Positions 954 to 63,651 of a stretch of 64,000 nucleotides of DNA are shown here, piece after piece. The stretch comes from a virus. Below the pieces are notes generated by a model that was not told the DNA's origin, did not search any database, and was given only the letters and a program-made list of their open reading frames with translations. Every line of letters starts with the position of its first letter. Positions within the stretch are counted from its first letter, which is position 1. The position numbers and the translations under genes were made by a program. The stretch lies in the IMG/VR virus record IMGVR_UViG_3300014656_000015. One strand, given 5' to 3'.

Positions 954-996
954 CTTATAACGATAAGCAGCTAAGAGTTGGGCGCGAGACGCGCCC
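954..996 (-). promoter_or_regulatory. Hairpin-CTTAG element followed by a GTTATAAG putative phage promoter
   Basis: Minus strand reads GGGCGC-gtctc-GCGCCC-aact-CTTAG-N11-TATAAG, the same layout as 33261-33303 and 33591-33633. Confidence 0.7.
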
Positions 997-1015
997 GAAG
1001 GAAGGTAGGAATGGA

Positions 1016-1291
1016 TCAGGCCGCCTGTATCCGAGCAGGCCTGCGCAGACGAATCGTGGCGGGACGCGAAAGCTCGAGGCGGGAGAGCCGGCGCAGCTCC
1101 TGGTTCCGGGCCAGCTCGGCCTCCCTGCGGAACCACTTCTCGTAGCGCTCCTGCGTCATCGTGGATCCGTCGTCCCAGTGCGGTGGCATCTCGGTCTCCC
1201 AGTAAAGCCCGCAGCGGCAGACCCCGTTATCGGCTCGTGTCCCCGGGCGATACCCTGGGCACGGCTCCTTCTTCCTCTCCTTTGTCGACAT
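1016..1291 (-). CDS. Small hypothetical protein with Cys residues
   Basis: ATG at 1291 (MSTKERKKEPCPG...VCRCG) with GGAGGGAG RBS; overlaps the helicase 3' end; followed by a hairpin-CTTAG element. Confidence 0.55.
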   Translation of the reverse strand: MSTKERKKEPCPGYRPGTRADNGVCRCGLYWETEMPPHWDDGSTMTQERYEKWFRREAELARNQELRRLSRLELSRPATIRLRRPARIQAA

Positions 1292-3314
1292 CGTTGTCTC
1301 CCTCCACCAGGACCCGCTCCACGATGGACCGACCCTGGCCAAGCTCGTACACCCTCCGGAACCTGGGTAGGCTCGACACGATTGTCGCGCCGTACCCCTT
1401 CTCGATCAATCTGGAATCGGCAATCACGATGACGCCGACATCGGTCTCCGACCGGATGAGGCGGCCCGCACCCTGACGCAGGGCAAGCGTGGCCATGGGC
1501 ACGCTGAGATCCATGAATACGTTGCCGCCGCTCCGCTGCACCAGCTCCTGTCTCGCGTCGAAGATGGGGTCGTCGGGGACCGGGAACGGGATCTTGTCGA
1601 TGAAGAGCCCGATCAGTGCGTTGCCAGGAACATCGACTCCTGTCCAGAGACTGGCCACACCCAGCATAATGCTCCTCTCATCCTCCCGGAACCGGATCAA
1701 AAGGGTGTCCAGCGGGGCCTCCCCCTGTACCTGGACCCGTATCTCCGGGGGCAGACGTGGCACCAATGCCTCCCGCACCACCTTCAGCCGGGACCAGCTC
1801 GTGAACAGGAGCAGGGAACGGCCGCCGCAAAGCTCGACGAGCTCGAAGCACAGATCGGCCAGGCTCTTGTTGTAGAAGTCGATGTCCTCCTTCCCCGACT
1901 TCTTACCGGGGGGCTGCGGGAACCCGGGTGGAATGTACAGCACGCCCTGATTGGACAGATCGAACGGGGACGGGACGATGAGCCGGACCACCCCGGTAGG
2001 GGGCAGGCCTAGCTCCTCAGCGATGTAGTCGAAGCTGTCCTTCACCGTCATCGTGGCCGATACGAAGCAGACACTGTGCAGGCCACGGTGGAACAGGCGA
2101 CGGTTCAGGATGGGGCCCACCGCGATGGGCCTGGCCTCGAAACGGTCCCGGCGCGGGTCGGCGGAGCTCCCATCCTTCTCCTTCCAGTAGATCCAACCCA
2201 GATCCTGTTCCAGGCCCAGACTCTTCTCGAGACGGTTCCGGACCACAAGGGTGCGCTCGATACATTTCCGCACCCGCTCCACCTCCTTACGTATCCGGTC
2301 CGGATTGTCACCGATGTCCTCGACTCCGCCCTCGCTTACCTTCTGAATCCTGCTGGCAAGGACCGCTTCGACCCGGTCCACCACGGCCAGGGCCGCATCG
2401 GAGTCCTCGAACCACTCCCCCGGTGTCTTCGACACGTTCCCCGTCTTGATCAGGTCACGGGCCTGTGAATAGAGCCGGTTCCGCAGCTCCTCCAGCTCCG
2501 CCACCAGCTTGTCCTGCTCCAGCTCCCGGGCGAAACCAATGAGCGCCCGGAACGAACCATAGCTCAGGGTCCAGCCCAGCACGTTCCTGGCAATGTCGGG
2601 GAGCTCATGGGCCTCATCGAAGATGACGATGTCGTGTGCCGGCAAGTGATCCGTCGCCAGCAGGTAAAGATAGTGGTTGCATACCACAACATCAACGTTC
2701 CGGGCCCGATTCCATGCCTGCCGTGAGAAACAGCTCGTCTCGTAATGCCCGCAGGCCCGGCCCAGACACTCATCGCCTTGCCGGCTCACCAGTGGCCAGA
2801 CCCAGGGGTTGGTGCTGAGCTCCACCATGTCGCCCGAGACTGTGGATTCGAGCCACTTCTGGATCGTCTCGAGCTCCTCGACCTCCTGCTTCCGCAACGT
2901 GACCCGACCCCGGGACACGTTGTGGCGAAGCGAGGCGTAGGCGTCCCGACACAGGTAGTTGTTCCGCCCCTTCAGAAGAGCGTAGCGAAAGTTCCACGGC
3001 AGGACGCGCTGCAAAAAGGGCAGATCCTTGTTCACGATCTGGCCCTGCAACCCCTTCGTTGCTGTGGAGATGATGGTATGGACCGTGCCCGACCTACTCG
3101 GGTCCCGCATGAATCGAATCGCGGGAACCAGGGCCGCCAGGCTCTTCCCGCTGCCAGTCGGCGCCTCACCGACCAGGTGGGTGCCGGTCTCGAACGCATT
3201 CAGGAACGCATCGGCCAGCTCCACCTGGCCCGACCGATGTCGGTAACTGGACAGGGTCCTGGAGAGGGTGCCCCCCTCCCCGAAGACCTGCCACATCGGA
3301 CTCGTTGTCTCCAT
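1227..3314 (-). CDS. dinG: DinG/YoaA-family SF2 ATP-dependent DNA helicase (Fe-S type)
   Basis: Walker A EAPTGSGKS, KGRNNYLC, Cys cluster (C..C.C..C), DEAH box, SATM, FTSW, GVDVPG, IPFPVP, QGAGRLIR. Confidence 0.93.
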   Translation of the reverse strand: METTSPMWQVFGEGGTLSRTLSSYRHRSGQVELADAFLNAFETGTHLVGEAPTGSGKSLAALVPAIRFMRDPSRSGTVHTIISTATKGLQGQIVNKDLPFLQRVLPWNFRYALLKGRNNYLCRDAYASLRHNVSRGRVTLRKQEVEELETIQKWLESTVSGDMVELSTNPWVWPLVSRQGDECLGRACGHYETSCFSRQAWNRARNVDVVVCNHYLYLLATDHLPAHDIVIFDEAHELPDIARNVLGWTLSYGSFRALIGFARELEQDKLVAELEELRNRLYSQARDLIKTGNVSKTPGEWFEDSDAALAVVDRVEAVLASRIQKVSEGGVEDIGDNPDRIRKEVERVRKCIERTLVVRNRLEKSLGLEQDLGWIYWKEKDGSSADPRRDRFEARPIAVGPILNRRLFHRGLHSVCFVSATMTVKDSFDYIAEELGLPPTGVVRLIVPSPFDLSNQGVLYIPPGFPQPPGKKSGKEDIDFYNKSLADLCFELVELCGGRSLLLFTSWSRLKVVREALVPRLPPEIRVQVQGEAPLDTLLIRFREDERSIMLGVASLWTGVDVPGNALIGLFIDKIPFPVPDDPIFDARQELVQRSGGNVFMDLSVPMATLALRQGAGRLIRSETDVGVIVIADSRLIEKGYGATIVSSLPRFRRVYELGQGRSIVERVLVEGDNDVDKGEEEGAVPRVSPGDTSR

Positions 3315-3325
3315 CTCGCTTCCTC

Positions 3326-5063: not shown

Positions 5064-5498
5064 TCATCCTCCTTTCCGCACTGGTTGGTGCATCCGCTGC
5101 ATCTGCCAATGCACGTCTCTTCGAAGCTCGAGCATCGCCCGATACTCCGGATTATCTGGATTCTTACCGCGTAGATCGGTCCCCAGGAACTGAACAGCCA
5201 GGTCAAGCTCGGCCAGGAGCTGCGTCGGCAGCGAGCCCCGATGCTCCTGAAGGTCCTGGACCACACGTCTGATGCCAGTCCGGTTCCGAAGTACCCAGGT
5301 CAGGGTCCCACGAACCCTGGGTTTGATCAGGGCGCCTCCGTATCTGGCGATCACCAGGTCCAGCACATCCTTTCGTCTGCCTGGCATGCTCATCTTGACG
5401 TAGACTCGGAGCAGCCCCCCATCATTCGTCTTCCGCTCCGTACTGACGTTGAACAGTCCCCGGGCCGCCATCAACCCTGCAAAGAAGGCTGTGTGCAC
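5064..5498 (-). CDS. Degenerate single-motif LAGLIDADG homing-endonuclease-like protein
   Basis: N-terminal AFFAGLMAARGLF resembles the (A)YLAGLIDGEG helix, followed by a typical beta-strand/W-x-L-R layout; the catalytic acidic position reads R. AGGAGGAG RBS. Confidence 0.55.
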   Translation of the reverse strand: MHTAFFAGLMAARGLFNVSTERKTNDGGLLRVYVKMSMPGRRKDVLDLVIARYGGALIKPRVRGTLTWVLRNRTGIRRVVQDLQEHRGSLPTQLLAELDLAVQFLGTDLRGKNPDNPEYRAMLELRRDVHWQMQRMHQPVRKGG

Positions 5499-5509
5499 AG
5501 TGCTCCTCC

Positions 5510-5860
5510 TGTTTTTTGAACCCTAGTTAGAACTCTAAAGTAGTATATTATATATTATACATACTATATAACACATACAGAATGATCCATGATCAGTATA
5601 TCTTGATCAGCCAGCCCTGATCACAGTCAAGTAGTATATTTAGTTCTATCCTGTACATGACATGGTGCTATGGTACAAAACCCCGATATGAGGCGCGTCT
5701 AACTAGCTGAAAAGACCTAAACCGCATCGGTCAAAAGTGGCTGTTTCGCTGTCAACTCATGCAAATGCCCGATGAAAACGACAGTTGGGCCTGATCAGGT
5801 GCCTAGAGTGCTCACTGCCGTTTTCATCGGGCATTTCTACCGTCGGTGCGTGATCAAGAC
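5510..5860. other. Candidate replication origin or regulatory region (AT-rich tract, phased TGATCA sites, 23-bp inverted repeat)
   Basis: Strongly AT-rich 5510-5660; TGATCA at 5590, 5604, 5618 (14-bp phasing), 5792 and 5851; inverted repeat 5763-5785/5814-5836. Confidence 0.5.
5763..5836. repeat. 23-bp inverted repeat (1 mismatch) with a 28-bp spacer containing the palindrome CCTGATCAGG
   Basis: AAATGCCCGATGAAAACGACAGT ... ACTGCCGTTTTCATCGGGCATTT, read directly. Confidence 0.9.
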
Positions 5861-5865
5861 GGTTC

Positions 5866-8999: not shown

Positions 9000-9009
9000 C
9001 CCTTATACC
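9000..9009 (-). promoter_or_regulatory. Putative phage promoter GGTATAAGG
   Basis: Member of the 10-copy intergenic G[GT]TATAAG family; lies upstream of an RBS and the DNA-metabolism operon. Confidence 0.65.
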
Positions 9010-12321: not shown

Positions 12322-12330
12322 ACTGTAGCA
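12322..12330 (-). promoter_or_regulatory. Extended -10 promoter TGCTACAGT upstream of the tail tube gene
   Basis: TGnTAnnnT in a short intergenic gap, followed by a GGAGG RBS. Confidence 0.55.
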
Positions 12331-22936: not shown

Positions 22937-22946
22937 CTCAACCTCC

Positions 22947-22986
22947 AAAAAAGAGGGCGCGGCGCCGTGTCTGGCACCGCGCCCTC
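22947..22986 (-). terminator. Canonical intrinsic terminator after the major capsid gene
   Basis: GAGGGCGCGG...CCGCGCCCTC stem followed by TTTTTT on the minus strand. Confidence 0.85.
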
Positions 22987-23016
22987 AAGGCGCTCACAGT
23001 TGTTCTCCACCGGGGC

Positions 23017-31354: not shown

Positions 31355-31420
31355 GGAGATCTCTCCTGGCTCCAGGTACACTTACCCCTGGTATCTTAGG
31401 TGTAACACAGGTGACGTGTC

Positions 31421-32176: not shown

Positions 32177-32309
32177 TTCCTGTGATAAGGGGTCTGTAGG
32201 CCCAATCCCAGGCTTCTTTGCTGCAAAGTGGCCGCTGGGATTGGGATAAGAACAATGAGTGGTCGAGCATTCTCCTTGCTCCGCACCACTCGGGAAAGGA
32301 GACTGTGAA

Positions 32310-32830: not shown

Positions 32831-32901
32831 GGTCCCACCTCGTGGACCGATTTCTTAGGGGTCTATATGGTTATAAGAATTATGGAAAGGAGGCAGAAAT
32901 G
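32831..32901 (+). promoter_or_regulatory. Hairpin-CTTAG / TATAAG / RBS cassette junction
   Basis: GGTCC..GGACC, CTTAG at 32854, TATAAG at 32872; 32870-32901 is identical to 33296-33327 (32 bp). Confidence 0.75.
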
Positions 32902-33261
32902 CCAATGATGTATCGTGTGGACGTTGTCGGAGTGTACGTACGCTCCGACACGTTCGGCCTGCTGTTCTCTCGCGCCAACGAGGCGCTGGCGTGTGGCCAG
33001 GCCCTCCGGGAGATGCTCCCGGGGGTTGTCGTTACGGTAAGTCGGGTGACAGCGGACGGAGGCTGTCCGCTGATCCTTCTCACCAACTTTCCAGGGGGGG
33101 CGACGGCGGTCGTGGAGGGGGCTCCGCCCCCATTCTACGACTGTGAGGGGGCCCAGCTCCTCCCCATCGAGAGATGGGAGGAGCTGCGAAACCGCCTCCT
33201 TCTCGATGTGGCACACCACAAAGGCACTCTCCACCGAGAGTGCCAGATTCACATTCCCTAG
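32899..33261 (+). CDS. Hypothetical (putative early) protein
   Basis: ATG after GGAAAGGAGG; bounded by cassette signals. Confidence 0.7.
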   Translation: MPMMYRVDVVGVYVRSDTFGLLFSRANEALACGQALREMLPGVVVTVSRVTADGGCPLILLTNFPGGATAVVEGAPPPFYDCEGAQLLPIERWEELRNRLLLDVAHHKGTLHRECQIHIP

Positions 33262-33327
33262 GCCCGGTTCTGGGCCAATTCCTTAGCTGTATATCGTTAT
33301 AAGAATTATGGAAAGGAGGCAGAAATG
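33261..33327 (+). promoter_or_regulatory. Hairpin-CTTAG / TATAAG / RBS cassette junction
   Basis: GGCCC-ggttct-GGGCC-aattc-CTTAG-N11-TATAAG-aattatGGAAAGGAGG. Confidence 0.75.
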
Positions 33328-33591: not shown

Positions 33592-33651
33592 CCCCGTTCC
33601 GGGGCCAATTCCTTAGTCGTGTATAGGTATAAGAATATTGAGGAAAGGAGG
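33591..33651 (+). promoter_or_regulatory. Hairpin-CTTAG / TATAAG / RBS cassette junction
   Basis: GCCCC-gttcc-GGGGC-caattc-CTTAG-N11-TATAAG-aatattgaGGAAAGGAGG. Confidence 0.75.
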
Positions 33652-37348: not shown

Positions 37349-37382
37349 ATGGTACCAAAGTCCGGGGTGTCCTGGGTATAAG
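37349..37382. promoter_or_regulatory. Divergent promoters: extended -10 TGGTACCAT (minus, toward terL) and GGTATAAG (plus, small-gene island)
   Basis: Motifs at 37349-37357 (-) and 37377-37382 (+). Confidence 0.55.
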
Positions 37383-37405
37383 GTCTGGACGGAAAGGAGA
37401 TCTAG

Positions 37406-38183: not shown

Positions 38184-38193
38184 GGGACGGAAG

Positions 38194-38218: not shown

Positions 38219-38225
38219 CTCAGTA

Positions 38226-40964: not shown

Positions 40965-41000
40965 GTCAGGAGGAGCGTAGCACAGGATGAGGACAGGGTT

Positions 41001-44908: not shown

Positions 44909-44939
44909 CGCGCCTCCCACCCTATCATAGCGTTCCGCA

Positions 44940-47900
44940 TCAGTAGCGCCAAGGCTTCTCCGGAGTCCCCTTACCAAAGGAGGCCCCCGAGATCAGGCCG
45001 GGTACCGGATGCGTGCCGTGGAACTCGGTGGTCCAGCCCTGCTGTGCGGCCTCGGTCAACGTGCTCTTGAGCCTGGTGTGGTTGAGCCGCGCCATCCAAT
45101 CCTCCTGGACATCGAGCGGGAGCAGCTTCACACCTCGGAGCACAGGGCTGTACTTGACCCCCTTCTCCTGAGCATGCTCCCGGTTCCACCGAGCCACGGC
45201 AGGCGTGCTGGCCAGATCGCCGCGCAGCAGCGCAGGGTGGTCCCCGGAGTCCTCGATCTCGGCCACGTTGCTCATGGCCCGGACCAGGAGCTCGGAGTTG
45301 CGACGTCGGATACCCTCCTTACCGTAGATGCTGTGGAGCTGCTGTGCCAGGAAACCCTGGGTTCGGTTGACCCCGGCCAGCGGCAGCAGCTGGTGTGGAT
45401 TGATGTACCCGGTCGTGATCGGATCCCCCTTACGGACCGCCTGACCCGCCTTCACGGTCAGCGCCGTGCCGGCCGGAACGTAGTGTCGGGTACCCCGTAT
45501 CATGACGCTGTGCCCACCGGCAGGGTCCTTCTTGATTGCCTCCACCGTCCCCTCCTTCGTGGCCAACGTTGCTGAATCCTTTACCTTCTGCGGAAGGTAG
45601 AGGAGAGAGGTAGCCCGGTCCAGTCCGGCAGCAGCCAGGCTCTGTTCCGCGCTCTCCTTGCCCTCATAAACTCCTCCTGAATGGAAGCTCCGCAGCGCGA
45701 GCTGGGTGCCCCGCTCCCCCAGTGCCTGGGCAGCCAGCACACCCACGTTCGTACCCAGGTCCGGCAGCTTTCCGGATTCGGTGAGCCCCATGCACTTCGC
45801 ACAGACCCCGGTATGGTGGTCGCAACGTATCGGGGAGCGCACCACGACCCGCGCCCGAGGATTGTTGTTGCGGATCTTGGTCACCAGATCATCGGTCAGT
45901 AGAGTATTTGCCGGAATCTCCTTGCCCCGGCCCAGCTTGACCGGAGCAACGGTGAAGCGTCCGAGCACGTCGGGGTCCTCCACACGCAACCCGATACCCC
46001 TCGCGGTCTCACAGTCCTCGGTATCCACCATCTGATCCATGGTGGAGTTCATCATCATCTTGGTCAGGTAGCCCGGTTCCCGGACGCTCTGCACCTTCTG
46101 CACGATGCCCTTGCGCCCGCCGCTGGTGGCCGACCAGTAGTCCATGGTCCGCAAGCCCTCCGCATAGGAACGGCGGACCGCGTTGGGGACGACTTCGCCC
46201 TTCCCGTCCACGAAGAGCACGGGTGCCGCCACCAGCTGCTTGTACCCGTTGCCCTTGATCCCCGCCGCCACCTCGAGCCGCGCCAACTGGGACTGGTTCC
46301 TGGGGTCCCGGGCTGCCTGCTTGAGGGCGGAGTCCAGCTTCCCCGACACCTCGGCGAAGGCATCGACGTACTGCTGCACGTCTCCGGGCTTGCTCAAATC
46401 GAGCCTGGATGTCTTCGTGGCAGCCGCACGGAGCAGGGGGTCCCGGATCTCACGGTGCGGCCTCATGTCCTCCAATCCCAGGGTAAAGCCCTCGGACGTG
46501 CTGACCTCGTTGCCCAGATCCTTGAGTCGGTTCGTCCGCTCCGGGTAGCCCTCACCGTCGAGCTGGGCCATTCGCTGGAACAGCTTGCCCTGCTCCCCCT
46601 TGGTAAGCCGGTACTGGAGGTCGGACAGCACGGGCTTCCTGAGCTCCTCCGGGAGCTCCTTGCTCACCCGGAGCCGACCCAGCGTGGTCCGGGTCGGCTT
46701 CCCGTCCGCCCCGGTCACCTTGACCACATCGGTCAACCCCACCTTCCCCTGTGCGTGGGCCCGTTCCAGCTCGGACTCCGTCTTGAAACTCTGGTTCGTC
46801 TTCTTGCCGACCTCGGTGGCCATGTAAAGGCCGACCTGCATCTCCTTGTCCGGGGTGTACATGACCCGGTGCGTGGCCGCGCTGAACAGGTTGCGGCTCG
46901 GGAACATGGCCTCGGCTTCGTGTACCGCTTCGTTGGAGATCGGGACGTAGGCAGACATCTGGTCCCCATCGAAATCGGCATTAAATCCGGAACACACCAA
47001 CGGATGTATCCCGATCGTCTTGGTATCGGTGAGGCGCGGCTTGAAGCTCTGCACGCTGTACCGGTGCAGCGCTGGATCCCGTTTGAGCATGACGGGCCGC
47101 TCCTGGACCACGCGGTCCAGTGTTCGAACAGCCAGTGGGTCATTCTCGTCCACCATCTTCTTGGCCTCGAGCGGACCGACACCGGCGGTACGACGGAGCT
47201 CGCGGACCACGAAGGGCTTGTACATCTCCTTGGCTGCCTTCCGCGGCAGCTCCACCTCGTCCAGCCCCAGCTTGGGGTTGGGCACGATGGTGCTGCGCAT
47301 CGTCAGATCCTGCTTCCGTTTGAGCAAGACGTTCTGGACGTAGCCCTCCTTGGGAGAGCCCTTGCCGGCGATGGTCTGGAGGATGCCGGAGAACTTGTTG
47401 TTGAGATGCCCGCCGACACCGGTCAACGAGCGCAGGTGGTCATAGATGTCGGCCTCGACCGGCGTGATCAAGGACTGCGGGGTGCCTGGCGGGAACTGGC
47501 CCGCCTTCATGTTCACCAGGGCCAGCCCCTTGTAAAGCTCGTTCAGATCGTCGGTCTGCAGCCGACCATCCTCCGTGATCGCGATGGGGCGCATCGCGGG
47601 GGGCAGGACCGGGACGTGCCGCATCATGTAGGCGTCGGTCGGCTTCATCTGGAGCCGGTCCAGCGCCTGCAGATACTTCACCTTGCGCCGGGTCTCGTTG
47701 AGGAGCTGGCCATTCAGCTTGGGCAGCCGAGCCTTCTCCCGTTCCAGGTCCGACTTCACGTCGATCCGGTCCAGTATCTTGCCGACCGCGGCGGGACCAT
47801 AGGTCACCCCGGCCTTGCCGGACTCGGTCACCACGTTGCCGTCGTCGGATACCCCGGCCTGGCCAGCGATGATGCTCTGGTACACTGGGGCCCGGATCCC

Positions 47901-50900
47901 GGCCAGGCTCATGATGGCCCGTTCGAAGACCGGGTTGGGCATCGGCTTGGCCAGGGTCAGGTGACTCCACCTTTTTCCATCCATTCCTCCCGTGATCTTC
48001 TCATCGAAGAGCCCGCCCCGCTCCGGCTTCTGATCCTTCATCCGGATCATCCTGCCGGCATCACGCAGTTCCCCACTGCTCATCTCGAGCGTGTCCTTGT
48101 CGGTCAACGGAACCAGATTGAGACTATTGCCGTCCCCCTCCATGTTCACGCCGAGACCCCTGAGGTAGCCGAGGAACTTGTTGTAGGCAAAGGTGGGACG
48201 AGGCGGTGGCAGCATTTCACCGGCTTGCAGCGCCCCCCAGAGCTCATCCCGGACACCACCCTGACTCTTGTCGCTCTTCCAGGTATTGGCCTCGCGAAGA
48301 TTGGCCCGCGCCCCGTGACTTAACATGGCGTAGGTACCCAGAGCACCGAATGCTTGCGCCCCGTGCTTCCCACCACCCCTGGGAACCAGGTTGTGGTCGT
48401 AGGCGCCACGGTCCCGGGACGCCATCTTCTTGTCCACCTGGTGCTCGAGCTTGAACACGTACTGATTCCCGGTGAACACCTTCGGAATGGTCCGGCCCGT
48501 GGCCGGATCGATCAGATCCTCCTTCTCCTTCAACCCCTCTTCCTTGAGCAGCTTCGAGACATGCTCCAGGTTGTCCTGGACCGTGAAGTTCTCTACCTGA
48601 ACCGGCCTCCCCCGCTTCTCCGCGACCTTCCCCGCCGCGGTCTCCAGGAGCTGACCCACATTCATGCGCCCCGCCACACCGAGCGGGTTCATGATGATGT
48701 CGATGGGCTTCCCATCCTTGGTCTGCGGCATCTCGGGGTCGGCAAGGATAGCGGTAACGATTCCCTTGTTTCCGTGCGCCGCGGCCAGCTTATCGCCGAC
48801 CTGCATCGGCTCTCGGGTCTTGACGTGAACCTCGACCCGATCCCGTCGCCGCATGACCCCGACCACTTCCCCCTCATGGTCCTCATCCCAGGTCACCGCC
48901 ATGTCCTTCTTCGGGCTGACGATGCTTTTATGCAGCAGCTGCAGCTTCTGCTCCTCCGTGGTCAGCTTGCGCTCCGCCATCGCCGCGACCAAGGTGTCCC
49001 CCGGCTTCACGCGCTGCCCCACCTGGACCACACCGGTATCGTCGAGCTTGGCCGCCTGATCCTTGCTCATCCGGTTGCGGAAATATGCCTGATACTTCTG
49101 CTTCCCGTCCAGCGATGCGTTCCGCAACGAGACCCCGGGCCGGTGCATATGCACCGAGGTCATCTTCTGCGCCGCGCTGTCGCTCAGCACGACCCCATCT
49201 TCGAAGGTGAGACCCTTCCATGGTAGATATGCCGTGGACAGATTTCTTCCGGGTGCGTACTGACCCCCCTTGGTGAAGTTGGTGTCCCCGATCAGTTGAC
49301 CCTCGGTCACCCTTTCCCCCACCTTCACCGTGGGTGTGCTATGCATGAACCCCGTCTTGTCGTTCAGTGGGTAGTGATTATAAATCGGGACATCGACCTT
49401 CTTCCCATCCCCGGTCCGAAGCGTAATCGCATCCTCGGTGACTCCTACCACCTCACCGGCCTGTGGTGCATGATGCGAGGCAAAGCTCCCGACCAGATCC
49501 ACCAGCGGCTTCTTGCCGATGACGGCCTGCACCAGTGGCACCTCGCCGTGCTCCACGGGCACGGCCTGGGACATGTGGCGACCCGCCATGGTAGCCCGGT
49601 TCGGGCTGTCGCTGTTGATGAAGGGGACCATGTTGGTGGCCAGTCCGAACATCTGCGCCGACTTCGGGACGATGTACTGCACGTCCCGCATCCGTACCGG
49701 CCTCACATCGTTCCCGGGTATGCTGGCCAGCACCATTCCGCCCTCGGCAGGGACGAAGCCACGTTTGGTGCGCCGCACCGCGTCGGGCAGAGCCACGGTG
49801 CTGTCATGGGCTCGCTCCACCGAGACCAACTCCGTCTTCCCACTCTTCGCGTTGATCAGCGGAATCTGAAGGGCGTTACCCACCTTCCGCGCACCGAGAC
49901 TGAGCTGGAGCGCGACCCCGGTGTTGATACCCTCCGGTGTGTCCAACGGGTCCAGGACACCGAAGTGGGACGGGTCCACCAGCTTTGCGTCCTCGGTGAT
50001 CCGGTTGGCATCGGCCACGCCGCCTTCCCCGGCGATGGTGGTACGCATATGGTTCCCGATCATGCGTAGCGGATTGGTCTGCTGTGCCGTGTTGGCCAGG
50101 GAGACCTGACTGAAGAAGTCATTGACGGGGCGGCCAAAGGTGTCGGGCCCCACGATGTCACGGACCCGCGCCTTCCGATCCAGATTGTTACGAACCCTCC
50201 GCTCGATGACCGGCCGTGTCCCCTCGATCCGTTCCTTCATGTAGTCTTCTACGGCATAGAAGTCTTTGAAGATCTGGTTATCTCGAACATCGGGTCGCTC
50301 CTGTCCCCGGGAGATCCCGAGCAGCCGACCCGTGGAGCGGAGCAACGCATCTTGATTGATCCTATCGATCGGAGCCCCAAGGGTACGCCGGGTCACCTCC
50401 GGATGCAGGTAGGAGCTCTCCAGCTTGTCCCGGATCACGCCAGCCGCCTCCTGCTCATCGCGAAAGGTGGCCTTCGGATCGACCCGTGCCGCGAAGTCCT
50501 TGATGACCTTCCCCGTCGGGATGGGCCGGCCCCTGGTATCCAGCTTGTTGGCGTTCAGGATCTCCTTGCCCCACGCCTGCTGCAACGTGTCGTCACTCAC
50601 CCCCATCGCCTTGAGGATGGGGTAGAGCGGAGGCTTGGCACCACCCAGCTGGACATGGAACTTCCGCGCTTCCGGGTTGAAGCCGACGTGGAGCGGCCTA
50701 CCCTTGATGTTGAAGAAGCTCTCCAGCTCCCCGTTCTGCTTGACCTTGGTGTAGACCCCGGGTCGGAGCCGGAACTGATTCTCCACCTGAAACTCGGAAC
50801 CGTTGACGATGAAGCTGTACCGGTTCGTGATCTTGGGCAAGTTAGCGATACGCTGGGTGGACCTGTCGATCACCTCCCCCGTCGCCTTGTCCCGAAGCAC

Positions 50901-51113
50901 CATGGTCGCCTTGACCGGGATGCCGAAGGTACGCTGGCTCAGCTTGGCCGCCTTCTGAGCCGTGAAGTCCGCGCTGGAGACATTGTCGTCGATCTGGACA
51001 TCTTCCAGCTCGAGGACGTGCTTGCCGCCCTCGATAGGGAAGGTGCCACGGACCGCCTCGGTAACCCCCTCCTTGAGTGCGTCAAAGCTCTCTCGGGGAT
51101 CGAGCCTGGCCAT
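44940..51113 (-). CDS. rpoBC: Single-chain DNA-directed RNA polymerase, fused beta and beta' homolog (2057 aa)
   Basis: Beta motifs SFIVNG, HFGVLDPLDTPEG, NRATMAGRHMSQAVP, GDKLAAAHGNKG, NPLGVAGRMNVGQ, KLEHQVDKK. Beta' motifs KPERGGLFD, PVLPPAMRP, RDPALHR, FNADFDGDQM, bridge helix GRKG..PGYLTK, trigger loop GERGTQLALRSFH. Confidence 0.96.
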   Translation of the reverse strand: MARLDPRESFDALKEGVTEAVRGTFPIEGGKHVLELEDVQIDDNVSSADFTAQKAAKLSQRTFGIPVKATMVLRDKATGEVIDRSTQRIANLPKITNRYSFIVNGSEFQVENQFRLRPGVYTKVKQNGELESFFNIKGRPLHVGFNPEARKFHVQLGGAKPPLYPILKAMGVSDDTLQQAWGKEILNANKLDTRGRPIPTGKVIKDFAARVDPKATFRDEQEAAGVIRDKLESSYLHPEVTRRTLGAPIDRINQDALLRSTGRLLGISRGQERPDVRDNQIFKDFYAVEDYMKERIEGTRPVIERRVRNNLDRKARVRDIVGPDTFGRPVNDFFSQVSLANTAQQTNPLRMIGNHMRTTIAGEGGVADANRITEDAKLVDPSHFGVLDPLDTPEGINTGVALQLSLGARKVGNALQIPLINAKSGKTELVSVERAHDSTVALPDAVRRTKRGFVPAEGGMVLASIPGNDVRPVRMRDVQYIVPKSAQMFGLATNMVPFINSDSPNRATMAGRHMSQAVPVEHGEVPLVQAVIGKKPLVDLVGSFASHHAPQAGEVVGVTEDAITLRTGDGKKVDVPIYNHYPLNDKTGFMHSTPTVKVGERVTEGQLIGDTNFTKGGQYAPGRNLSTAYLPWKGLTFEDGVVLSDSAAQKMTSVHMHRPGVSLRNASLDGKQKYQAYFRNRMSKDQAAKLDDTGVVQVGQRVKPGDTLVAAMAERKLTTEEQKLQLLHKSIVSPKKDMAVTWDEDHEGEVVGVMRRRDRVEVHVKTREPMQVGDKLAAAHGNKGIVTAILADPEMPQTKDGKPIDIIMNPLGVAGRMNVGQLLETAAGKVAEKRGRPVQVENFTVQDNLEHVSKLLKEEGLKEKEDLIDPATGRTIPKVFTGNQYVFKLEHQVDKKMASRDRGAYDHNLVPRGGGKHGAQAFGALGTYAMLSHGARANLREANTWKSDKSQGGVRDELWGALQAGEMLPPPRPTFAYNKFLGYLRGLGVNMEGDGNSLNLVPLTDKDTLEMSSGELRDAGRMIRMKDQKPERGGLFDEKITGGMDGKRWSHLTLAKPMPNPVFERAIMSLAGIRAPVYQSIIAGQAGVSDDGNVVTESGKAGVTYGPAAVGKILDRIDVKSDLEREKARLPKLNGQLLNETRRKVKYLQALDRLQMKPTDAYMMRHVPVLPPAMRPIAITEDGRLQTDDLNELYKGLALVNMKAGQFPPGTPQSLITPVEADIYDHLRSLTGVGGHLNNKFSGILQTIAGKGSPKEGYVQNVLLKRKQDLTMRSTIVPNPKLGLDEVELPRKAAKEMYKPFVVRELRRTAGVGPLEAKKMVDENDPLAVRTLDRVVQERPVMLKRDPALHRYSVQSFKPRLTDTKTIGIHPLVCSGFNADFDGDQMSAYVPISNEAVHEAEAMFPSRNLFSAATHRVMYTPDKEMQVGLYMATEVGKKTNQSFKTESELERAHAQGKVGLTDVVKVTGADGKPTRTTLGRLRVSKELPEELRKPVLSDLQYRLTKGEQGKLFQRMAQLDGEGYPERTNRLKDLGNEVSTSEGFTLGLEDMRPHREIRDPLLRAAATKTSRLDLSKPGDVQQYVDAFAEVSGKLDSALKQAARDPRNQSQLARLEVAAGIKGNGYKQLVAAPVLFVDGKGEVVPNAVRRSYAEGLRTMDYWSATSGGRKGIVQKVQSVREPGYLTKMMMNSTMDQMVDTEDCETARGIGLRVEDPDVLGRFTVAPVKLGRGKEIPANTLLTDDLVTKIRNNNPRARVVVRSPIRCDHHTGVCAKCMGLTESGKLPDLGTNVGVLAAQALGERGTQLALRSFHSGGVYEGKESAEQSLAAAGLDRATSLLYLPQKVKDSATLATKEGTVEAIKKDPAGGHSVMIRGTRHYVPAGTALTVKAGQAVRKGDPITTGYINPHQLLPLAGVNRTQGFLAQQLHSIYGKEGIRRRNSELLVRAMSNVAEIEDSGDHPALLRGDLASTPAVARWNREHAQEKGVKYSPVLRGVKLLPLDVQEDWMARLNHTRLKSTLTEAAQQGWTTEFHGTHPVPGLISGASFGKGTPEKPWRY

Positions 51114-51138: not shown

Positions 51139-51185
51139 AGTGTATCAGGTATCGAGGGGAGGCGGGTAGCCCGTAACGTTATAAG
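51139..51185. promoter_or_regulatory. Divergent promoters: extended -10 TGATACACT (minus, RNAP gene) and GTTATAAG (plus, small-gene/ncRNA island)
   Basis: 51139-51147 (-) upstream of the RNAP AGGAGG RBS; TATAAG at 51180-51185 (+). Confidence 0.6.
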
Positions 51186-51241: not shown

Positions 51242-51355
51242 ATGAAGGGGACGAGCATCTGTATCATCCGGGCCGACGGTGGCCCGGGTGATGAGGACGA
51301 CGCCCCGGGCTCTCTCGAGTCCGGGGTGGACGAGGCGCTCGGGCTAGGCGGCTAG
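51242..51355 (+). CDS. 37-aa acidic peptide
   Basis: AAAGGAGG RBS; MKGTSICIIRADGGPGDEDDAPGSLESGVDEALGLGG. Confidence 0.55.
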   Translation: MKGTSICIIRADGGPGDEDDAPGSLESGVDEALGLGG

Positions 51356-51481: not shown

Positions 51482-51549
51482 GGGTACCGGGTACGGTACC
51501 CCTTTCTTAGCGCAAAACGCCTCGTTTGCCATGGTATAAGAATATTGAG
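51482..51549 (+). promoter_or_regulatory. Hairpin-CTTAG followed by a GGTATAAGAATATTGAG promoter-like motif (no RBS follows)
   Basis: 17-bp identity to 33626-33642; no start codon/RBS pair downstream. Confidence 0.65.
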
Positions 51550-52715: not shown

Positions 52716-52914
52716 TAGCAAAAATCAATCCTATTAGATAGTTATAAGAACTATGAAGAGTTGGTGAGTTCGATCCACGACTCCTTGGACCATCCCCTCG
52801 GCGAAGACCCGAGGCACAGAGTCCAAGGAGCCCTTTCGTGGGTAGTCGAACCCGACCCGCCATCCGAGGTAAGGCGGGAATCCTCGGTGACCCGGGCATG
52901 TCGGAAAACTACCC
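51910..52914 (+). repeat. Pseudoknot-forming repeat CGCCAT(C/T)CGAGG(C/T)AAGGCGG..CCTCG(G/A), 3 copies
   Basis: Copies at 51910-51939, 51944-51972 and 52858-52887; the last two are each followed by a GAC..GGGCATGTCG..AAACT.CCC unit. Confidence 0.85.
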
Positions 52915-54263: not shown

Positions 54264-54397
54264 CCCATAATCGGCATTGCAATTCCCCGATACTTCTTGG
54301 GATAAGGAGGGTGGACCCCATATTTGCCGACAACGGAGTCGGCCTATCGGAGGTTCGGGATGGCCTGCACCGGAGTCGGTCATCGAAAGGAGACGAG

Positions 54398-59060: not shown

Positions 59061-59130
59061 GCACCGAATAGTATCAGGATGGAGTCGTGGGCGCTACGAC
59101 ATCCAGGATCGCCGGAGGAGCCGGGTAGGG

Positions 59131-62100
59131 CTACGCGGAGTACGCCGTGACGTTGACGATGTCGGTGGCCACGATATCCGGCGCACCGGCGGCACCGAGG
59201 CCGCTGATGAGGACGTCGCCGTTGGCGATGGTGAAGACATCGGCGCCACCCGACTTCGGGACGCCACCAGCCGTGATGATCGAGACCTCGAAGCGAGCCA
59301 CGGCGAAGGGGAAGCTGATGCGGGCCCGCGTCGCCGTGATATGGTCCGCATTGATCGTCAACGAGGCCGAAGCCGTCTGGATCACAGCGGGGGCGCGGCC
59401 AGCCAAGGTGCTCATATTGACATCGCCGCAGTCGAAGGCGTAGTTCGTCAGCAAGAGAGCCGACAGCGCGATGTTGGGGACCGCACTGATGACGTTGCCC
59501 TGTGGCGCATCGGCAGAACGTGCTCGCAGCGTCGTGCTCGCCACAACCTCGTCCCAGAACAGGTTTTCCGTGGGACCGCCGAGCCCCGTGAAGGTGACCG
59601 CAGCTAGAAGGTTGGCAAAGGTGACCGCAGCGCCACCTCCATCGATGACGAACTGCATGGGCGCCACCGGTCCGGGTGCGATGGCGGTATAGATATCGCC
59701 CCCAACCACGAGCGTGTCGCCAGGATTTGGCTGGCCCGCCTGAGTCAGCTCGACGACAGCCACGGAGCCCGGATCGCTGATGGTACGCGTCGCCATCCGA
59801 GCCGTCATCAGCTCGGTGACGGTGAGGTCGGGATCGAAGCCCCGGGCCGTGCTGGAAAAGACGCAGCCACCGCTGATTTCCACGGTACCCGACCCGGAGA
59901 TGGCGTAGCCGTCGGCCTCCGTCGAATCAATCTTGACGTCGAGAAGACGGACCGTGTTGCCCGCCGCGACGGCGAGACCCGCCACGGCACCGACGTCGAT
60001 CTCGCAATCGACGAGGCGCATCGTGGGGTTCGCCACAGCGGCTTCCGACCCGACCTGGCCCGTGAAATAGGTGTTGAACCAGTTCGTAGTCGTGGCCATG
60101 ACACCTTCGGCCACCAAGGACTCCGCCACGTTGCTGCCATGCGTCACGACGCAGTCGTAGCCATTGACGAGGCCGGACTCGATCTGGATCACCGGGTTGG
60201 CGTTGATGACGTTCGTCATCAGCATGCAATCGTTCAAGGTGACGAGCTGGGTAACGCCGAGAATGTGCAACGCAGCCAGGCCGGCGCCGGTAGCCAGGAA
60301 CATGCAATCCTTGAACTGCACGGAAAACATGCCCATGCCGACCTGACTCACGGCAACGGCGTCGGTGCCGGTCGCATTGTCGTCCACGAACTGGAAACCC
60401 TCGAAGTTGGCGTTCACGTCGAGACAGGTCAATGCACCGATGATCTGTACAGCGTAGCCCCGCCCGAAGCCCTCCGCGATGTAGGTGACCCCGGTCACCG
60501 CAACGACATCCTCGATATAGGCTCCCGCCCGAACGTAGACGACGTCCCCGGCCACGGCCACGGCATTGGCGCCGGCGATGGTCGAGAAGGGCAACTCCCG
60601 GGTACCGTACTCCTCCCCGGTATGATTGCCGTCCACATAGTGGTGAGTCGGCTCCAGCGTCACACTCTCCGACTCCGGGATCGTGGTCACGGTCAGGGTG
60701 GCCGCGAAGCCGGCAGCGGAGCCAGGGAAGGCCAGCCCGCTGTGCTGCACCGTACCGGCACCGCCGAATGCCTCATCGGCTGCCTCGGAGGAGGTCACCT
60801 GGGAGGCATGGATGCGTAGAGAGCACAGCGCCGCCACGAGGACGGCGGAGATCGCGCCGACCGCCAGGACGCAATGCTCGACGATCAGGGTGGGGGCGAC
60901 GACTGCCGCCTCCTGCCCGATCTGCCCGGAGACGTCGCAGTAGCGCAGCGTGACCGAGGATGCGTCCTGGCCCTCGCAGACCAGGGCCTCGAGCGCAGTG
61001 TTGCCGTGGATGAAGCTGCAACGGCTGAAGGACCCCGTACCGGAGTCGATCCGAGCCGCCTCGTTGGCGTTGGCCGCATTGGCCGTGATCGTGGTGTTGC
61101 GCCCGATCACGGTCCCATTGGGGTTGTCAGCTACGAAGGCTTCGGCACCGGTCGCCGTGCTCGTGACGTTGCAGTCGATGAGGCGCAACGTCTCAGCCGC
61201 CGTTCCGGTGAAGGTGAGGGCAACGCCAGCACCATCATCGATGAAGTCGATGCCGCTGATCACACAGCCGACGTCGGTGGCCAACGCGGAGCCGGTCACG
61301 GTCACCGTACCCGGCAGGATCGCCTTGAGGTGGACCCCGTCCACGAGGACGAGATCCTCGACGTAGGCACCTGGCCCGACGAGAACGACGTCACCGGCCG
61401 AGGCCGCATCGATCCCGTCCTGGATCGCGGCGTAGGGCTTCTCCGGCGTACCCTCGGCGTCGGTGCCGGTGTAGCCCGCATCGACGTGGATGATAGTCGA
61501 GAGGCTGCGAGCCGTGCTGCGGAGGAAGGCAGGGTTGGAGCGAACCCCGTTGGCCGTCACGAAGACGGCATTGGCGTCGGCGGAGGTCCGAGCCGGAGTC
61601 AACGCGGTCAGATCCGGAACCCGGACCAGGCACGCGGTCTCCGTGACCGGGGCTGCCGGTGCCGTACCGGCGAGCTGGACCGGGAGCGCAGCCGCACCCG
61701 AGACGCGACAGGCCCAGTCCGTACCGAGACCGCCGGTCAACGCGGTGGCCGCGAAGGCTCCTGCCGCCACGATACCGGCCGCGTTCACGGTACCCGCACT
61801 GACCGCCCTGATGTAGCCACGGGCCGCGGAGCCTGCCGCGTTGACCGCCGTGGCGAGGGCGTCGTCGTCATCGACACCCGCATTGAAGGTAAGGGCAAGG
61901 GCGCCGGCGACGTAGGCGACACCGGTCGCTATGCCCGAGATCAGTTGCACCGTCAAGGCATTGCCGCCGGTACCCGGCTTGCAAGCGTAGAACGTGAGGC
62001 CGTGCGCCGCCTTGGCGAGGGACGCCGCGACACCCCCGTTCAGGAGCTTGGCACCCCGGATCATGAGGTCGGCCCCGGCCAGATCCAGCGGCTGTTCCCC

Positions 62101-62271
62101 ATCCAGCATATCGATGGTGGGGAAGCTGGAGGCGGAGACCGACTCGAGCGTCTGGAATGCCTCGTCGATGTCGTTGCGGAGATCGGCAATCTCTCCAAGC
62201 ACGCCACCCTTCTCCACCCCGGCCTGGGGGCGAATGGGCTTCTTGCTGCCGAACGCGGTGCTGCCTGACAT
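59131..62271 (-). CDS. Tail fibre/spike-like protein with duplicated right-handed beta-helix modules
   Basis: Two DUF1565-like caps (HVDAGYTG..GTPEKPYAAIQ..GDVVLVGPGAY and YVDGNHTG..GTRELPFSTIA..GDVVYVRAGAY), each followed by beta-helix repeats. Confidence 0.65.
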   Translation of the reverse strand: MSGSTAFGSKKPIRPQAGVEKGGVLGEIADLRNDIDEAFQTLESVSASSFPTIDMLDGEQPLDLAGADLMIRGAKLLNGGVAASLAKAAHGLTFYACKPGTGGNALTVQLISGIATGVAYVAGALALTFNAGVDDDDALATAVNAAGSAARGYIRAVSAGTVNAAGIVAAGAFAATALTGGLGTDWACRVSGAAALPVQLAGTAPAAPVTETACLVRVPDLTALTPARTSADANAVFVTANGVRSNPAFLRSTARSLSTIIHVDAGYTGTDAEGTPEKPYAAIQDGIDAASAGDVVLVGPGAYVEDLVLVDGVHLKAILPGTVTVTGSALATDVGCVISGIDFIDDGAGVALTFTGTAAETLRLIDCNVTSTATGAEAFVADNPNGTVIGRNTTITANAANANEAARIDSGTGSFSRCSFIHGNTALEALVCEGQDASSVTLRYCDVSGQIGQEAAVVAPTLIVEHCVLAVGAISAVLVAALCSLRIHASQVTSSEAADEAFGGAGTVQHSGLAFPGSAAGFAATLTVTTIPESESVTLEPTHHYVDGNHTGEEYGTRELPFSTIAGANAVAVAGDVVYVRAGAYIEDVVAVTGVTYIAEGFGRGYAVQIIGALTCLDVNANFEGFQFVDDNATGTDAVAVSQVGMGMFSVQFKDCMFLATGAGLAALHILGVTQLVTLNDCMLMTNVINANPVIQIESGLVNGYDCVVTHGSNVAESLVAEGVMATTTNWFNTYFTGQVGSEAAVANPTMRLVDCEIDVGAVAGLAVAAGNTVRLLDVKIDSTEADGYAISGSGTVEISGGCVFSSTARGFDPDLTVTELMTARMATRTISDPGSVAVVELTQAGQPNPGDTLVVGGDIYTAIAPGPVAPMQFVIDGGGAAVTFANLLAAVTFTGLGGPTENLFWDEVVASTTLRARSADAPQGNVISAVPNIALSALLLTNYAFDCGDVNMSTLAGRAPAVIQTASASLTINADHITATRARISFPFAVARFEVSIITAGGVPKSGGADVFTIANGDVLISGLGAAGAPDIVATDIVNVTAYSA

Positions 62272-62275
62272 TTCT

Positions 62276-63529
62276 TTACTCTCCCTGCCCCCGCAACGCA
62301 GCTATCACCTGCTGCGTGTCCAACGGAAGCGATTCAAAGATGCCCACTGGATCACTGGCCAACCCAGCGGCCAGATCCTCCCCTAACTTCTGCTTCACAC
62401 GTTCCGTGTCAGCCGCGATCTTCAGAAGCTGGTCCTTGGATAGAGTGTTCCTGCCATCGGTCCAGCTCCACTCCTCGGCCTCCTTGCCGAAGACAGTCTC
62501 CCACGGATCCGGGATACCGTGCCCCCAGTATCGATCCAGGCCGGTGGCCTCGTCGAGCTGGCACAGGGCCTCGGCAAAGGTCTCGGGCTCCGTGGAGGCC
62601 CGCTTCTCCATGAGCATGGCATAGAGGTCCGGTGCTCCACCACCAACCTTGGTACCGGCCCAGATCCGCTGCCGGGTCTCGGCACCGGCGGACAGATAGT
62701 CGTCAGGGTTGAGCCCAGGCGCTCCGTACTGCCGGACCACCTCGCCCACCCCGACACCCAGATCCTCGGCCCGCTTGACAATGGCCACGGCCATCGAGCG
62801 TCGGGTCCGTGGGTGGATACCGTTGAGGTTCTGCTCCAGGAATGCGGCGGCCTCCTTGACCTGGGTGAAGGTGTCGATGGGCAGTCGCTGTCCGGACAGC
62901 GCGTAGTGCCCCCAGGTCTCCGCACCGTGCGTGGGTCGGGGGACGACCCCCCGCCACGACACGTAGGGATCAAGGCCGGCCCGCTTCTCCTTCTTCGCCT
63001 TCTCCCGTTCCTTCTCCGGATCACCAACCGCGGATCCGGGGGCGGAGAGTGGCATCACCTTGGTCCCGGAGAGGTCGGCCCTCTTGTCCAGCTCCTTCTT
63101 TCTTTCGGTCACCGGAACCCGGATCGGCGCTCCGTCGCTTCGGATCAGCAGCCGGCGCTCGGGGTCCGCTGCCAGCTTCAGGAGGGGGGCCGGAGGCTCG
63201 ATGCTGTGACGCTGGCACATCCCAACCAGATTCGCGGCGATCTTGCTGCGGGCCGTGTCCGGGATGCGGTCGGCCACGTCCAGGAAGTAGCCCACGCTCA
63301 GCACGGTGTGCGCCGGGTCGTGGCAAGCATACTTCCTGAGCTGCCGCGAGCCGTCCGTGATGACGGCGGCGAAGGCGTGATCCGGGAGCCGCTCGATCCG
63401 ATCCGGGGTCAACGCGGCCGCTGTCTTGACCATCTCCGGCAGCTCGCGCCCACCGAAGACCCGGTTGACGGAGGCAAAGCGATCATCGTAGACGTCAAAG
63501 ACAAACCCAGCGGGAATTCCCATCCTCAT
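62276..63529 (-). CDS. Hypothetical head-associated protein
   Basis: VKTAA, LKLAA, DKRAD, EKRAS, LKIAA sites; LPDHAFA, RKYACHD and LPID motifs; extended -10 TGGTAGACT at 63557-63565. Confidence 0.7.
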   Translation of the reverse strand: MRMGIPAGFVFDVYDDRFASVNRVFGGRELPEMVKTAAALTPDRIERLPDHAFAAVITDGSRQLRKYACHDPAHTVLSVGYFLDVADRIPDTARSKIAANLVGMCQRHSIEPPAPLLKLAADPERRLLIRSDGAPIRVPVTERKKELDKRADLSGTKVMPLSAPGSAVGDPEKEREKAKKEKRAGLDPYVSWRGVVPRPTHGAETWGHYALSGQRLPIDTFTQVKEAAAFLEQNLNGIHPRTRRSMAVAIVKRAEDLGVGVGEVVRQYGAPGLNPDDYLSAGAETRQRIWAGTKVGGGAPDLYAMLMEKRASTEPETFAEALCQLDEATGLDRYWGHGIPDPWETVFGKEAEEWSWTDGRNTLSKDQLLKIAADTERVKQKLGEDLAAGLASDPVGIFESLPLDTQQVIAALRGQGE

Positions 63530-63651
63530 CTCCTGTCGGAGGCCGTCGTCAGCATCAGTCTACCACCACGACCTCCTCTAGAAAAGGCACCTCGTGTTCA
63601 CGGTATAAGGTCTTCCCGACATCCGTGCTAACGAGAAAGGAGATTGAGGAG

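Follow-up and report, generated by a model that had tools for sequence, protein, structure and literature searches.

The window analyzed here, a stretch of 64,000 nucleotides (nt) from the IMG/VR virus record IMGVR_UViG_3300014656_000015, contains a gene for a fused beta-beta' RNA polymerase (RNAP), and most of its large genes are minus-strand virion genes. The element under study is the short word TATAAG, whose copies head short plus-strand units amid the virion genes as well as a minus-strand unit (8963-1227). The units of this promoter class, called class A below, encode a C5 DNA methylase, an XPD/DinG-type helicase, a MYG1-like nuclease, ORFans, and a small acidic protein, and no copy of the motif is found ahead of any virion gene in the window. 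The claim of a first-pass annotation of this DNA that the motif marks non-structural units is thus supported.

According to a gene map based on codon-usage log-odds and Shine-Dalgarno scores, with a non-coding share of about 7.6-9%, TATAAG is the most intergenic-enriched 6-mer in the window, where an A/T hexamer stands out because the GC content is 63.8%. It occurs 10 times against 2.39 expected copies, and none of 100 shuffled sequences reaches this number. The first-pass annotation had placed all ten copies at exactly the right positions and strands, and its statements that each is preceded by GG or GT (10/10, with 0.31 copies of G[GT]TATAAG expected) and that each is intergenic (10/10) agree with the map. 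It had also noted a strong ribosome-binding site or a structured RNA behind every copy. Eight copies are followed, at a distance of 21-56 nt, by a start codon in the same orientation that has a Shine-Dalgarno sequence of the GGAAAGGAG type, the copy at 51535 heads a stretch at 51.5-52.7 kb that is poor in open reading frames (ORFs), and for the copy at 52743 the next ORF begins 266 nt downstream. Every copy is oriented toward the downstream gene or toward the ORF-poor stretch.

Three GATAAG variants (32184, 32245, and 54301) bring the class A total to 13 window sites. When scored by a weight matrix trained only on other genomes, they fall within the top seven window matches. The same matrix ranks 12 window sites at the top (14.4-32.2 bits), all of them intergenic, namely nine TATAAG and all three GATAAG copies. 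The remaining TATAAG copy, at 9002, reaches only 8.1 bits and has a weak context, with CAA missing and A at +1.

Promoter architecture and its conservation

The architecture was profiled on 33 non-redundant intergenic sites from the window and the related genomes G002, G003, and G005; G010, whose 18 sites represent an independent lineage, was left out of this profile. The full class A layout is bipartite, with gCAAa at -34 to -30, G at -14, ATAAG at -11 to -7, and T(-1) G(+1). No -35 box had been evident in the first-pass annotation, and this point has to be corrected: a weak -35-like CAA(A/T) precedes the hexamer by about 19-21 nt in 10 of the 13 window sites, and A occupies -32 and -31 in 22/33 profiled sites each. 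As for the start region, T is found at -1 in 22/33 sites (pyrimidine in 28/33) and G at +1 in 24/33 (purine in 29/33), while A never occurs at -13 and T never at +1 or +2. The G010 sites repeat this profile (A-32 in 14/18, A-31 in 13/18, T-1 in 13/18, and G+1 in 15/18), whereas copies of the same word inside G010 genes carry these bases in only 24, 18, 23, and 30% of cases, respectively. G at -7 is present in all 13 window sites and in all 33 + 18 profiled sites. Copies of G-N-B-ATAAG are intergenic in 13/14, 10/33, 10/16, and 14/29 cases in the four genomes, the window being first; for the T-ending form the corresponding values are 0/3, 0/11, and 0/3 in the window, G002, and G003, and 2/11 in the fourth genome.

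The class A start is predicted at the G seven bases after the hexamer, with T before it. In several units of both lineages this G doubles as the first Shine-Dalgarno G (ATAAG-N6-GGAAAGGAGG and ATAAGaagcatGGAGG), and therefore the predicted start can lie no further downstream. A strong Shine-Dalgarno sequence is always present on class A mRNAs, and their leaders often contain YTAG or ATCTAGC just before it, about 18-25 nt past ATAAG (G002, G003, and G005; window 37400-37405). Reading the -10 element as TAAGAT or AAGAAT was dropped, since the bases after TATAAG are lineage-specific or unconserved.

Compared with a sigma-70 promoter, class A shares the invariant A-11 and a predicted start about 7 nt past the hexamer with pyrimidine at -1 and purine at +1, but it lacks T at -7 (TAnnnT) and has neither a TTGACA-like -35 box nor TG at -15/-14, T-15 being present in 10/33 sites and G-14 being fixed. 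The other reference is sigma-28 (FliA/WhiG, group 3; TAAA-N15-GCCGATAA), in whose open complex the elements are (-36)TCTAAAG(-30) and (-15)GCCGATAA(-8), A-11 is flipped out, and upstream G:C pairs act as an extended -10 (PMC12784957). When the two are aligned at A-11, invariant ATAA is found in the phage element at -11 to -8, together with conserved A-A at -32/-31, within the TAAA region (about -34 to -31); G occupies -12 in three window sites and in the GATAAG lineages (G008-G012), and the G just upstream resembles an extended -10. The differences are T-12 in ten window sites, bases other than C-C-G at -13 to -15 (-13 and -15 are not C and G), gCAAa instead of TCTAAAG at -35, with C at -33 oftener than A and no T at -34, and the invariant G-7, which is outside the sigma-28 consensus. 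Judging from this geometry, class A would be better read as a sigma-28-like promoter than as a sigma-70 box spoilt by G. Thus, of the earlier argument from G in place of the sigma-70 T, the exclusive G and the distinctness from host-type promoters stand, and the spoilt box gives way to a geometry that fits better.

As for conservation, megablast of 10 kb against GenBank phages gives no close relative. In IMG/VR, full-length RNAP relatives with 55-63% identity and many head-protein relatives are found, and the motif is common to this family of uncultured phages of about 170-180 kb, for which full-text literature searches on phage promoters of the TATAAG type and on phage RNAPs with fused beta-beta' plus a sigma gave no description. 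The complete 177.8-kb genome of G005, with terminal repeats, has exactly one RNAP gene. The fused RNAP is present in every relative at least 65% complete, and no relative without it was found among records of that completeness.

Enrichment in relatives, which the first-pass annotation had proposed as a check, is observed in G002, G006, G007, and G013, and in the form [GC]ATAAG in G009, G010, and G012. In G002 (50.6% GC) the top intergenic 7-mers are TATAAGA, GTTATAA, and TTATAAG, with the local consensus TGTTATAAGATC, and the G003 version is G-C-TATAAG; intergenic copies of the TATAAG-type motif number 9/13 in G002, 5/6 in G003, and 6/11 in G005, and G-N-TATAAG is also enriched in G006, G007, and G013. 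The motif is thus kept across diverged phages with 50.6-63.8% GC. The clearest case is found where the RNAP gene adjoins its divergent neighbor; at this junction, four lineages have lost all similarity save two boxes about 30 bp apart: CTTATA, which is TATAAG directed away from the RNAP gene, and a TGnTAsnnT box directed into it (TGATACACT, TGGTAGAGT, TGATAGAGT, or TGCTACATT). The class A site at this junction is kept in every relative examined. More distant lineages have, at the same spot, GGGATAAG (G008, G009, G011, and G014) or GGCATAAG (G010, G016, and G017), with TACGCT, TACCCT, TAATAT, or TATCAT facing the RNAP gene, and G-N-[GC]ATAAG is enriched genome-wide (15 v 2 in G009, 18 v 3 in G010, and 21 v 4 in G012), with no enrichment in T-type genomes. 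The family-wide core is G(-14)-N-[T/G/C]ATAAG, in which the first hexamer base switches by lineage. Since the invariant unit is G(-14)-N-B-ATAAG, the three GATAAG copies of the window belong to it as well.

A regulator binding site, an RNA-processing signal, or a junction sequence of mobile cassettes would be compatible with the identical flanks that some copies (32872 and 33298) have at repeated cassette junctions. The flanks of most copies, however, are unrelated, the orientation always matches the downstream gene, the conserved bases at -32/-31, -14, -1, and +1 exactly fit RNA polymerase geometry, and the motif outlasts all other similarity at syntenic junctions, which leaves a non-promoter role hardly credible.

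Two repeated elements were noted in relatives. In G005, CCAGCTGGGAGGTTTAGTGATCCCAGAC is present in some 30 copies, in which the arms of a 6-bp inverted repeat enclose a 10-nt loop; often they are arranged in tandem close to the genome termini and precede a start codon by 21-66 nt. This hairpin element is confined to G005 and G001, and no window copy exists within 5 mismatches; being lineage-specific and absent from the window, it was ruled out as the general promoter of the family, and it may represent a third promoter or operator class. A fragment of the distant relative G020 (16-45 kb; 39% head-protein identity) carries eleven copies of GGTATAAG on one strand at intervals of 2-4 kb.

Host-type promoters and other features of the window

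A second class of sites (class B) has the form TGnTAnnnT. In the window, 12-13 of 30 copies are intergenic and eight sit 7-33 nt ahead of co-oriented start codons. A cleaner picture is given by the positional test, because AT-rich spacers inflate intergenic counts: 7/30 copies lie within 60 nt before a start, compared with 4/126 and 3/282 for controls with one base changed. Across 34 sites in four genomes, class B shows a weak TT at -35/-34, and in several independent genes ATG follows the hexamer by exactly 6-7 nt, so that these mRNAs would be leaderless. An ATG 6-10 nt past the -10 hexamer is frequent in general (window 59060, 40964, and 44908; G005 65905 and 104784; G003 58498), and virion genes would thereby have leaderless transcripts. 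Unlike class A, class B sites have the TG/-35 feature of sigma-70 promoters, and judged by these features the class resembles a primary-sigma extended -10 promoter. Class B precedes the major head protein, portal, baseplate, spike, RNAP, and sigma-operon genes (the sigma gene, known from relatives, is described below). Boxes of both classes are often placed back to back, 9-32 bp apart, and their use would therefore be mutually exclusive.

The two classes bear on a reading in which host holoenzyme recognizes ATAAG, either with its own sigma-28/WhiG-type factor or with a primary sigma that tolerates G-7 through the extended -10 G, and the phage RNAP uses other signals. The sigma-28 register of the motif, the extended -10-like G-14 (TG in G002), and the possibility of a host sigma-28 in the family's hosts agree with it. 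Nevertheless, the bases at -12 and -13 switch with the phage lineage, in contrast to the bacteria-wide conservation of GCCGATAA; the form ending in T, which suits primary sigma best, has no intergenic copy in the window, G002, and G003; these genomes also possess a distinct host-type class; the phage family has its own sigma of such type; and the motif persists over phages with 50-64% GC, probably with different hosts. Recognition by host holoenzyme is therefore improbable.

Coordinates of all sites and of the main genes are given in Table 1. At the ends of nine class A units in the window, a GC hairpin precedes (A)AYTYC-TTAG, and a long U-tract is missing; on the opposite strand CTTAG reads CTAAG, one base off the promoter core ATAAG. 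The only canonical U-tract terminator in the window (22946-23010, minus strand; delta-G -33.9, T5) is very strong and lies within the long virion operon, immediately behind the gene for the major head protein. In all lineages, the product of the class A gene divergent from the RNAP gene (51242-51355 and its syntenic counterparts) is a small and highly acidic protein, which may be a DNA mimic or a host-takeover factor. An IS605-type TnpB gene (35874-37358, minus strand) abuts the 5' end of the terminase gene; as a lead to the host it yielded only matches with 34-35% identity in unrelated taxa. The unit headed by the 9002 site contains, in a gap between two of its minus-strand genes, an AT-rich island of about 370 bp (5499-5865; TTGACT, TATAAT, and TATATA words), which could be an origin, a host-type promoter cluster, or a mobile remnant. 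Neither a tRNA nor an Rfam family was found in the window.

Table 1. Promoter sites, genes, and unit ends in the window, with examples of the repeated G005 element in the last row
Feature	Position	Strand	Remarks
Class A core GTTATAAG	954..961	-	fronts gene 1-919(-); matrix score 19.0
Class A core GGTATAAG	9002..9009	-	heads unit 8963 to 1227(-); matrix score 8.1
Class A variant GTGATAAG	32182..32189	+	first of tandem pair before gene 32310-32807; gCAAAA at -34 to -29, T-1/G+1; 22.1 bits
Class A variant GGGATAAG	32243..32250	+	second of tandem pair before gene 32310-32807; 25.8 bits
Class A promoter	32870..32877	+	one-gene cassette 32905-33261; 19.1 bits
Class A promoter	33296..33303	+	cassette 33325-33591; +1 G is first Shine-Dalgarno G; 26.3 bits
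Class A promoter	33626..33633	+	cassette 33660-33980; 23.8 bits
Class A promoter	37375..37382	+	genes 37406-38183; back to back with class B 37349-37357(-); 14.8 bits
Class A promoter	51178..51185	+	divergent from RNAP gene; small acidic ORF 51242-51355; 17.3 bits
Class A promoter	51533..51540	+	heads structured ORF-poor 51.5-52.7 kb stretch (putative non-coding RNA); 25.4 bits
Class A promoter	52741..52748	+	upstream of MYG1-like nuclease gene 53015-53992; 32.2 bits, best in window
Class A variant GGGATAAG	54299..54306	+	before gene 54398-55480; 25.5 bits
Class A promoter	63602..63609	+	gene 63652 onward; back to back with class B 63557-63565(-); 14.4 bits
Class B box TGCTACAGT	12322..12330	-	20 nt before gene 11576-12301
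Class B box TGGTATCTT	31389..31397	+	23 nt before HTH_17 protein gene 31421-32176
Class B box TGGTACCAT	37349..37357	-	heads TnpB/terminase unit
Class B box TGCTACGCT	40974..40982	-	9 nt before gene 40098-40964; leaderless type
Class B box TGATAGGGT	44919..44927	-	10 nt before gene 44564-44908; baseplate-hub gene next
Class B box TGATACACT	51139..51147	-	25 nt before RNAP start codon; TGnTAsnnT or TAnnnT kept in all relatives
Class B box TGATACTAT	59068..59076	-	7 nt before ATG of gene 58278-59060; would-be leaderless mRNA
Class B box TGGTAGACT	63557..63565	-	before unit 63523 to 55538(-): spike, internal virion protein, portal
Fused beta-beta' RNAP gene	44940..51113	-	2057 amino acids; candidate core enzyme for class A
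Major head protein gene	23017-24141	-	
Terminase gene	34010-35887	-	
Baseplate hub gene	43393-44559	-	
Portal gene	55538-57340	-	
Internal virion protein gene	57337-58281	-	
Beta-helix spike gene	59131-62271	-	
GC hairpin + AATTCCTTAG, example	33250..33286	+	ends a class A cassette
Other GC hairpin + AATTCCTTAG elements	end at 975(-), 32858, 33616, 34013, 38218, 51510, 54263, 55514		class A unit ends noted at, with the example above included, 971, 32854, 33282, 33612, 34009, 38214, 51506, 54259, 55510
CCAGCTGGGAGGTTTAGTGATCCCAGAC element, examples	G005 3180-3440, 5330-5450, 154250, 176956		

Candidate readers of the two promoter classes

The RNAP ORF is one polypeptide with Rpb2 (beta) domains in its N-terminal half and Rpb1 (beta') domains in its C-terminal half, close to bacterial beta/beta' chains in PDB (E about 1e-100). 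The beta' clamp helices are kept, but the nearly invariant LYRRVINRNNRLKRL is changed to LYKGLALVNMKAGQF. The gene sits in the baseplate/tail operon with a host-type promoter. No homologue of the alpha subunit is present in the complete relative G005.

A scan of complete relatives with a general sigma model revealed an ORF of about 250 amino acids in G002 and G005, and the two are orthologues with 62% identity. Pfam Sigma70_r3 scores 35.3 and 31.0 bits in them (cut-off 25.3), TIGR02937 covers sigma regions 2-4 below its cut-off, and the best full-length NCBIfam matches are FliA/WhiG models. A six-sequence profile matches SigA, RpoD, RpoS, SigB, and FliA chains in PDB over regions 2.2 to 4 (E = 4e-12 to 3e-4). 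Judged from these matches, the protein is a member of the sigma-70 family with detectable regions 2, 3, and 4. Orthologues are found in seven relatives, GATAAG lineages included (G002, G005, G007, G009, G011, G012, and a further contig). The residues with which primary sigmas read the -10 element (FSTYATWWIRQ, region 2.3/2.4) are replaced, and region 2.2 departs from the bacterial consensus with its key invariant glutamate kept. Covariation of sigma residues with the -12 base was considered and supports no claim, as promoter type is confounded with sigma phylogeny and only six sequences are involved. The sigma gene is the last of a conserved operon of giant proteins that begins with a class B box, and the major tail protein gene comes next. 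Its neighbor of 1111 amino acids (G005 35322-38657) has P-loop kinase, GNAT acetyltransferase, and ligase-like segments, and in this combination it resembles injected polyvalent proteins.

Because the phage family encodes its own sigma-70-family factor, this factor appears a more likely reader of class A than the RNAP alone. The earlier view of the motifs as cognate promoters of the phage RNAP is thus retained in part: the class is phage-specific and every sufficiently complete relative has the fused RNAP, but direct reading by the RNAP is replaced by the likelier sigma, for which the RNAP would be the putative core. Since the surfaces of both partners, sigma region 2.2 and the beta' clamp-helix face, are altered, a private sigma-core pair is suggested.

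The favored interpretation, to which a probability of about 0.55 is assigned, is that the phage sigma on the single-chain beta-beta' core reads ATAAG and host holoenzyme reads the promoters of the virion genes, the RNAP gene, and the sigma operon. G-N-[T/G/C]ATAAG would be the -10 element of a phage-specific bipartite promoter, recognized by an orthogonal two-gene holoenzyme that consists of the sigma of about 250 amino acids and the fused core. The 13 class A promoters of the window would drive non-virion units (ORFan cassettes, methylase-helicase, nuclease, acidic protein, and non-coding RNA), which are the kind of genes needed before virion assembly. Class B units would be transcribed by host holoenzyme from TGnTAnnnT, because host-type extended -10 promoters front them. 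The RNAP and sigma genes are located among virion and injected-type genes, and therefore both proteins are probably packaged and delivered with the DNA; made late, they would fire the ATAAG promoters in the next infection. By analogy, the most economical scheme would be that of N4, crAss-like phages, and P23-45, with the enzyme packaged and host RNAP used for late genes.

Alternatively, the phage sigma might redirect the host core to ATAAG, with the fused beta-beta' doing something else, such as reading TGnTAnnnT with host sigma A or replacing an inactivated host core. Phage sigmas acting on host core are a well-known case (PMC7824862), class A geometry is fully bacterial, the invariant region 2.2 glutamate is kept, and host subunits may be needed anyway because the phage encodes no alpha homologue. 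Set against these points, the strong changes in both region 2.2 and the beta' clamp-helix face suggest a private pair, sigma and RNAP co-occur in the family, and the keeping of a 6-kb core gene is hard to explain if the host core served both classes. Appropriation of the host core thus looks doubtful compared with a phage sigma on the phage core.

Several observations weigh against the favored interpretation. The sequences taken by themselves would fit a phage sigma on phage core or on host core equally well. The FliA/WhiG matches of the sigma (25-26 bits) are far under the family cut-offs of 190-326 bits. The window contains no copy of the sigma gene, and neither sigma profile finds one in G008 and G010 (88-91% complete), though G010 has 18 ATAAG sites; a search with the neighboring giant protein gives no match even in sigma-bearing genomes and is hence uninformative on these two. 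T[not G]NTANNNT is enriched in spacers too, so the AT-richness of intergenic DNA confounds part of the class B enrichment. Terminator type was rejected as a marker of the core enzyme (17:10 vs 2:3 over four genomes, p = 0.37), many CTTAG ends being T-rich too. Finally, G005 and G001 have the third, more abundant intergenic element, and two classes for two enzymes is therefore too simple a scheme, at least for that lineage.

A bolder version of the phage sigma on phage core interpretation, in which beta-beta' and a sigma-28-like sigma form a self-contained holoenzyme, made late from host-type promoters, packaged, and injected for host-independent transcription of early and non-virion genes, with the promoter word (T-, G-, or C-ATAAG) co-evolving with the sigma, is put forward only tentatively. 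A compact two-gene system of bacterial type (fused beta-beta' and sigma) seems to be paired with a simple, well-defined promoter of some 30 bp, which should not be used by host polymerase. If true, nature would offer synthetic biology an orthogonal sigma/core/promoter set, promoter-sigma co-evolution could be followed over dozens of metagenomic genomes, and the working of a minimal bacterial RNAP without alpha subunits could be studied. With the promoter model gCAAa-N16-G-N-BATAAG-N5-TG and TGnTAnnnT, two regulatory classes can be told apart in the genomes of this uncultured family from sequence alone.

Comparison with known transcription systems

Compared with sigma-28 itself, the candidate factor is phage-encoded, scores far below the FliA/WhiG cut-offs, and probably works with a phage core. 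Phage sigmas that act on host core include T4 gp55 (late promoters TATAAATA), SPO1 gp28 and gp33/34, and phiEco32 gp36. As in these phages, a sigma-family protein would set a -10-centered promoter class that separates gene classes; to our knowledge, however, T4, SPO1, and phiEco32 have no core polymerase of their own, their motifs differ from ATAAG, and T4 late promoters lack a -35 element. Baculovirus late promoters, (A/G/T)TAAG, are read by a viral four-subunit RNAP and start inside TAAG, with no sigma-like geometry. Since the T-1/G+1 of class A lies seven bases downstream, this is a resemblance only, and no evolutionary link is implied.

Phage promoters are also used by the polymerases of T7-like phages, N4, phiKZ/AR9, and P23-45, among which we know of none that combines a recognizable sigma with a bacterial-type core. 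Thermus phage P23-45 transcribes its pre-early and early genes with phage RNAP(s) that have their own motifs, and its late genes with host RNAP and an extended -10 (PMC10770324). The family described here would share with it the polymerase gene among virion genes and the late genes left to a host-type extended -10, but differs in that the core is a bacterial-type beta-beta' fusion accompanied by a sigma-family factor. Polymerases that are carried in the virion and transcribe the first genes are known from N4, crAss-like phages, phiKZ (vRNAP), and P23-45 (gp96). The jumbo phages phiKZ and AR9 have multisubunit RNAPs with short phage-specific promoter motifs (PMC7598289, PMC7824862), and the multisubunit-type phage RNAP, the phage promoter words, and the virion versus non-virion logic are common to both cases. 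Their enzymes, however, consist of 4-5 very divergent subunits in two sets, with no recognizable sigma and with other motifs, whereas the present family has one gene and one set, close to bacterial beta/beta', plus a recognizable sigma.

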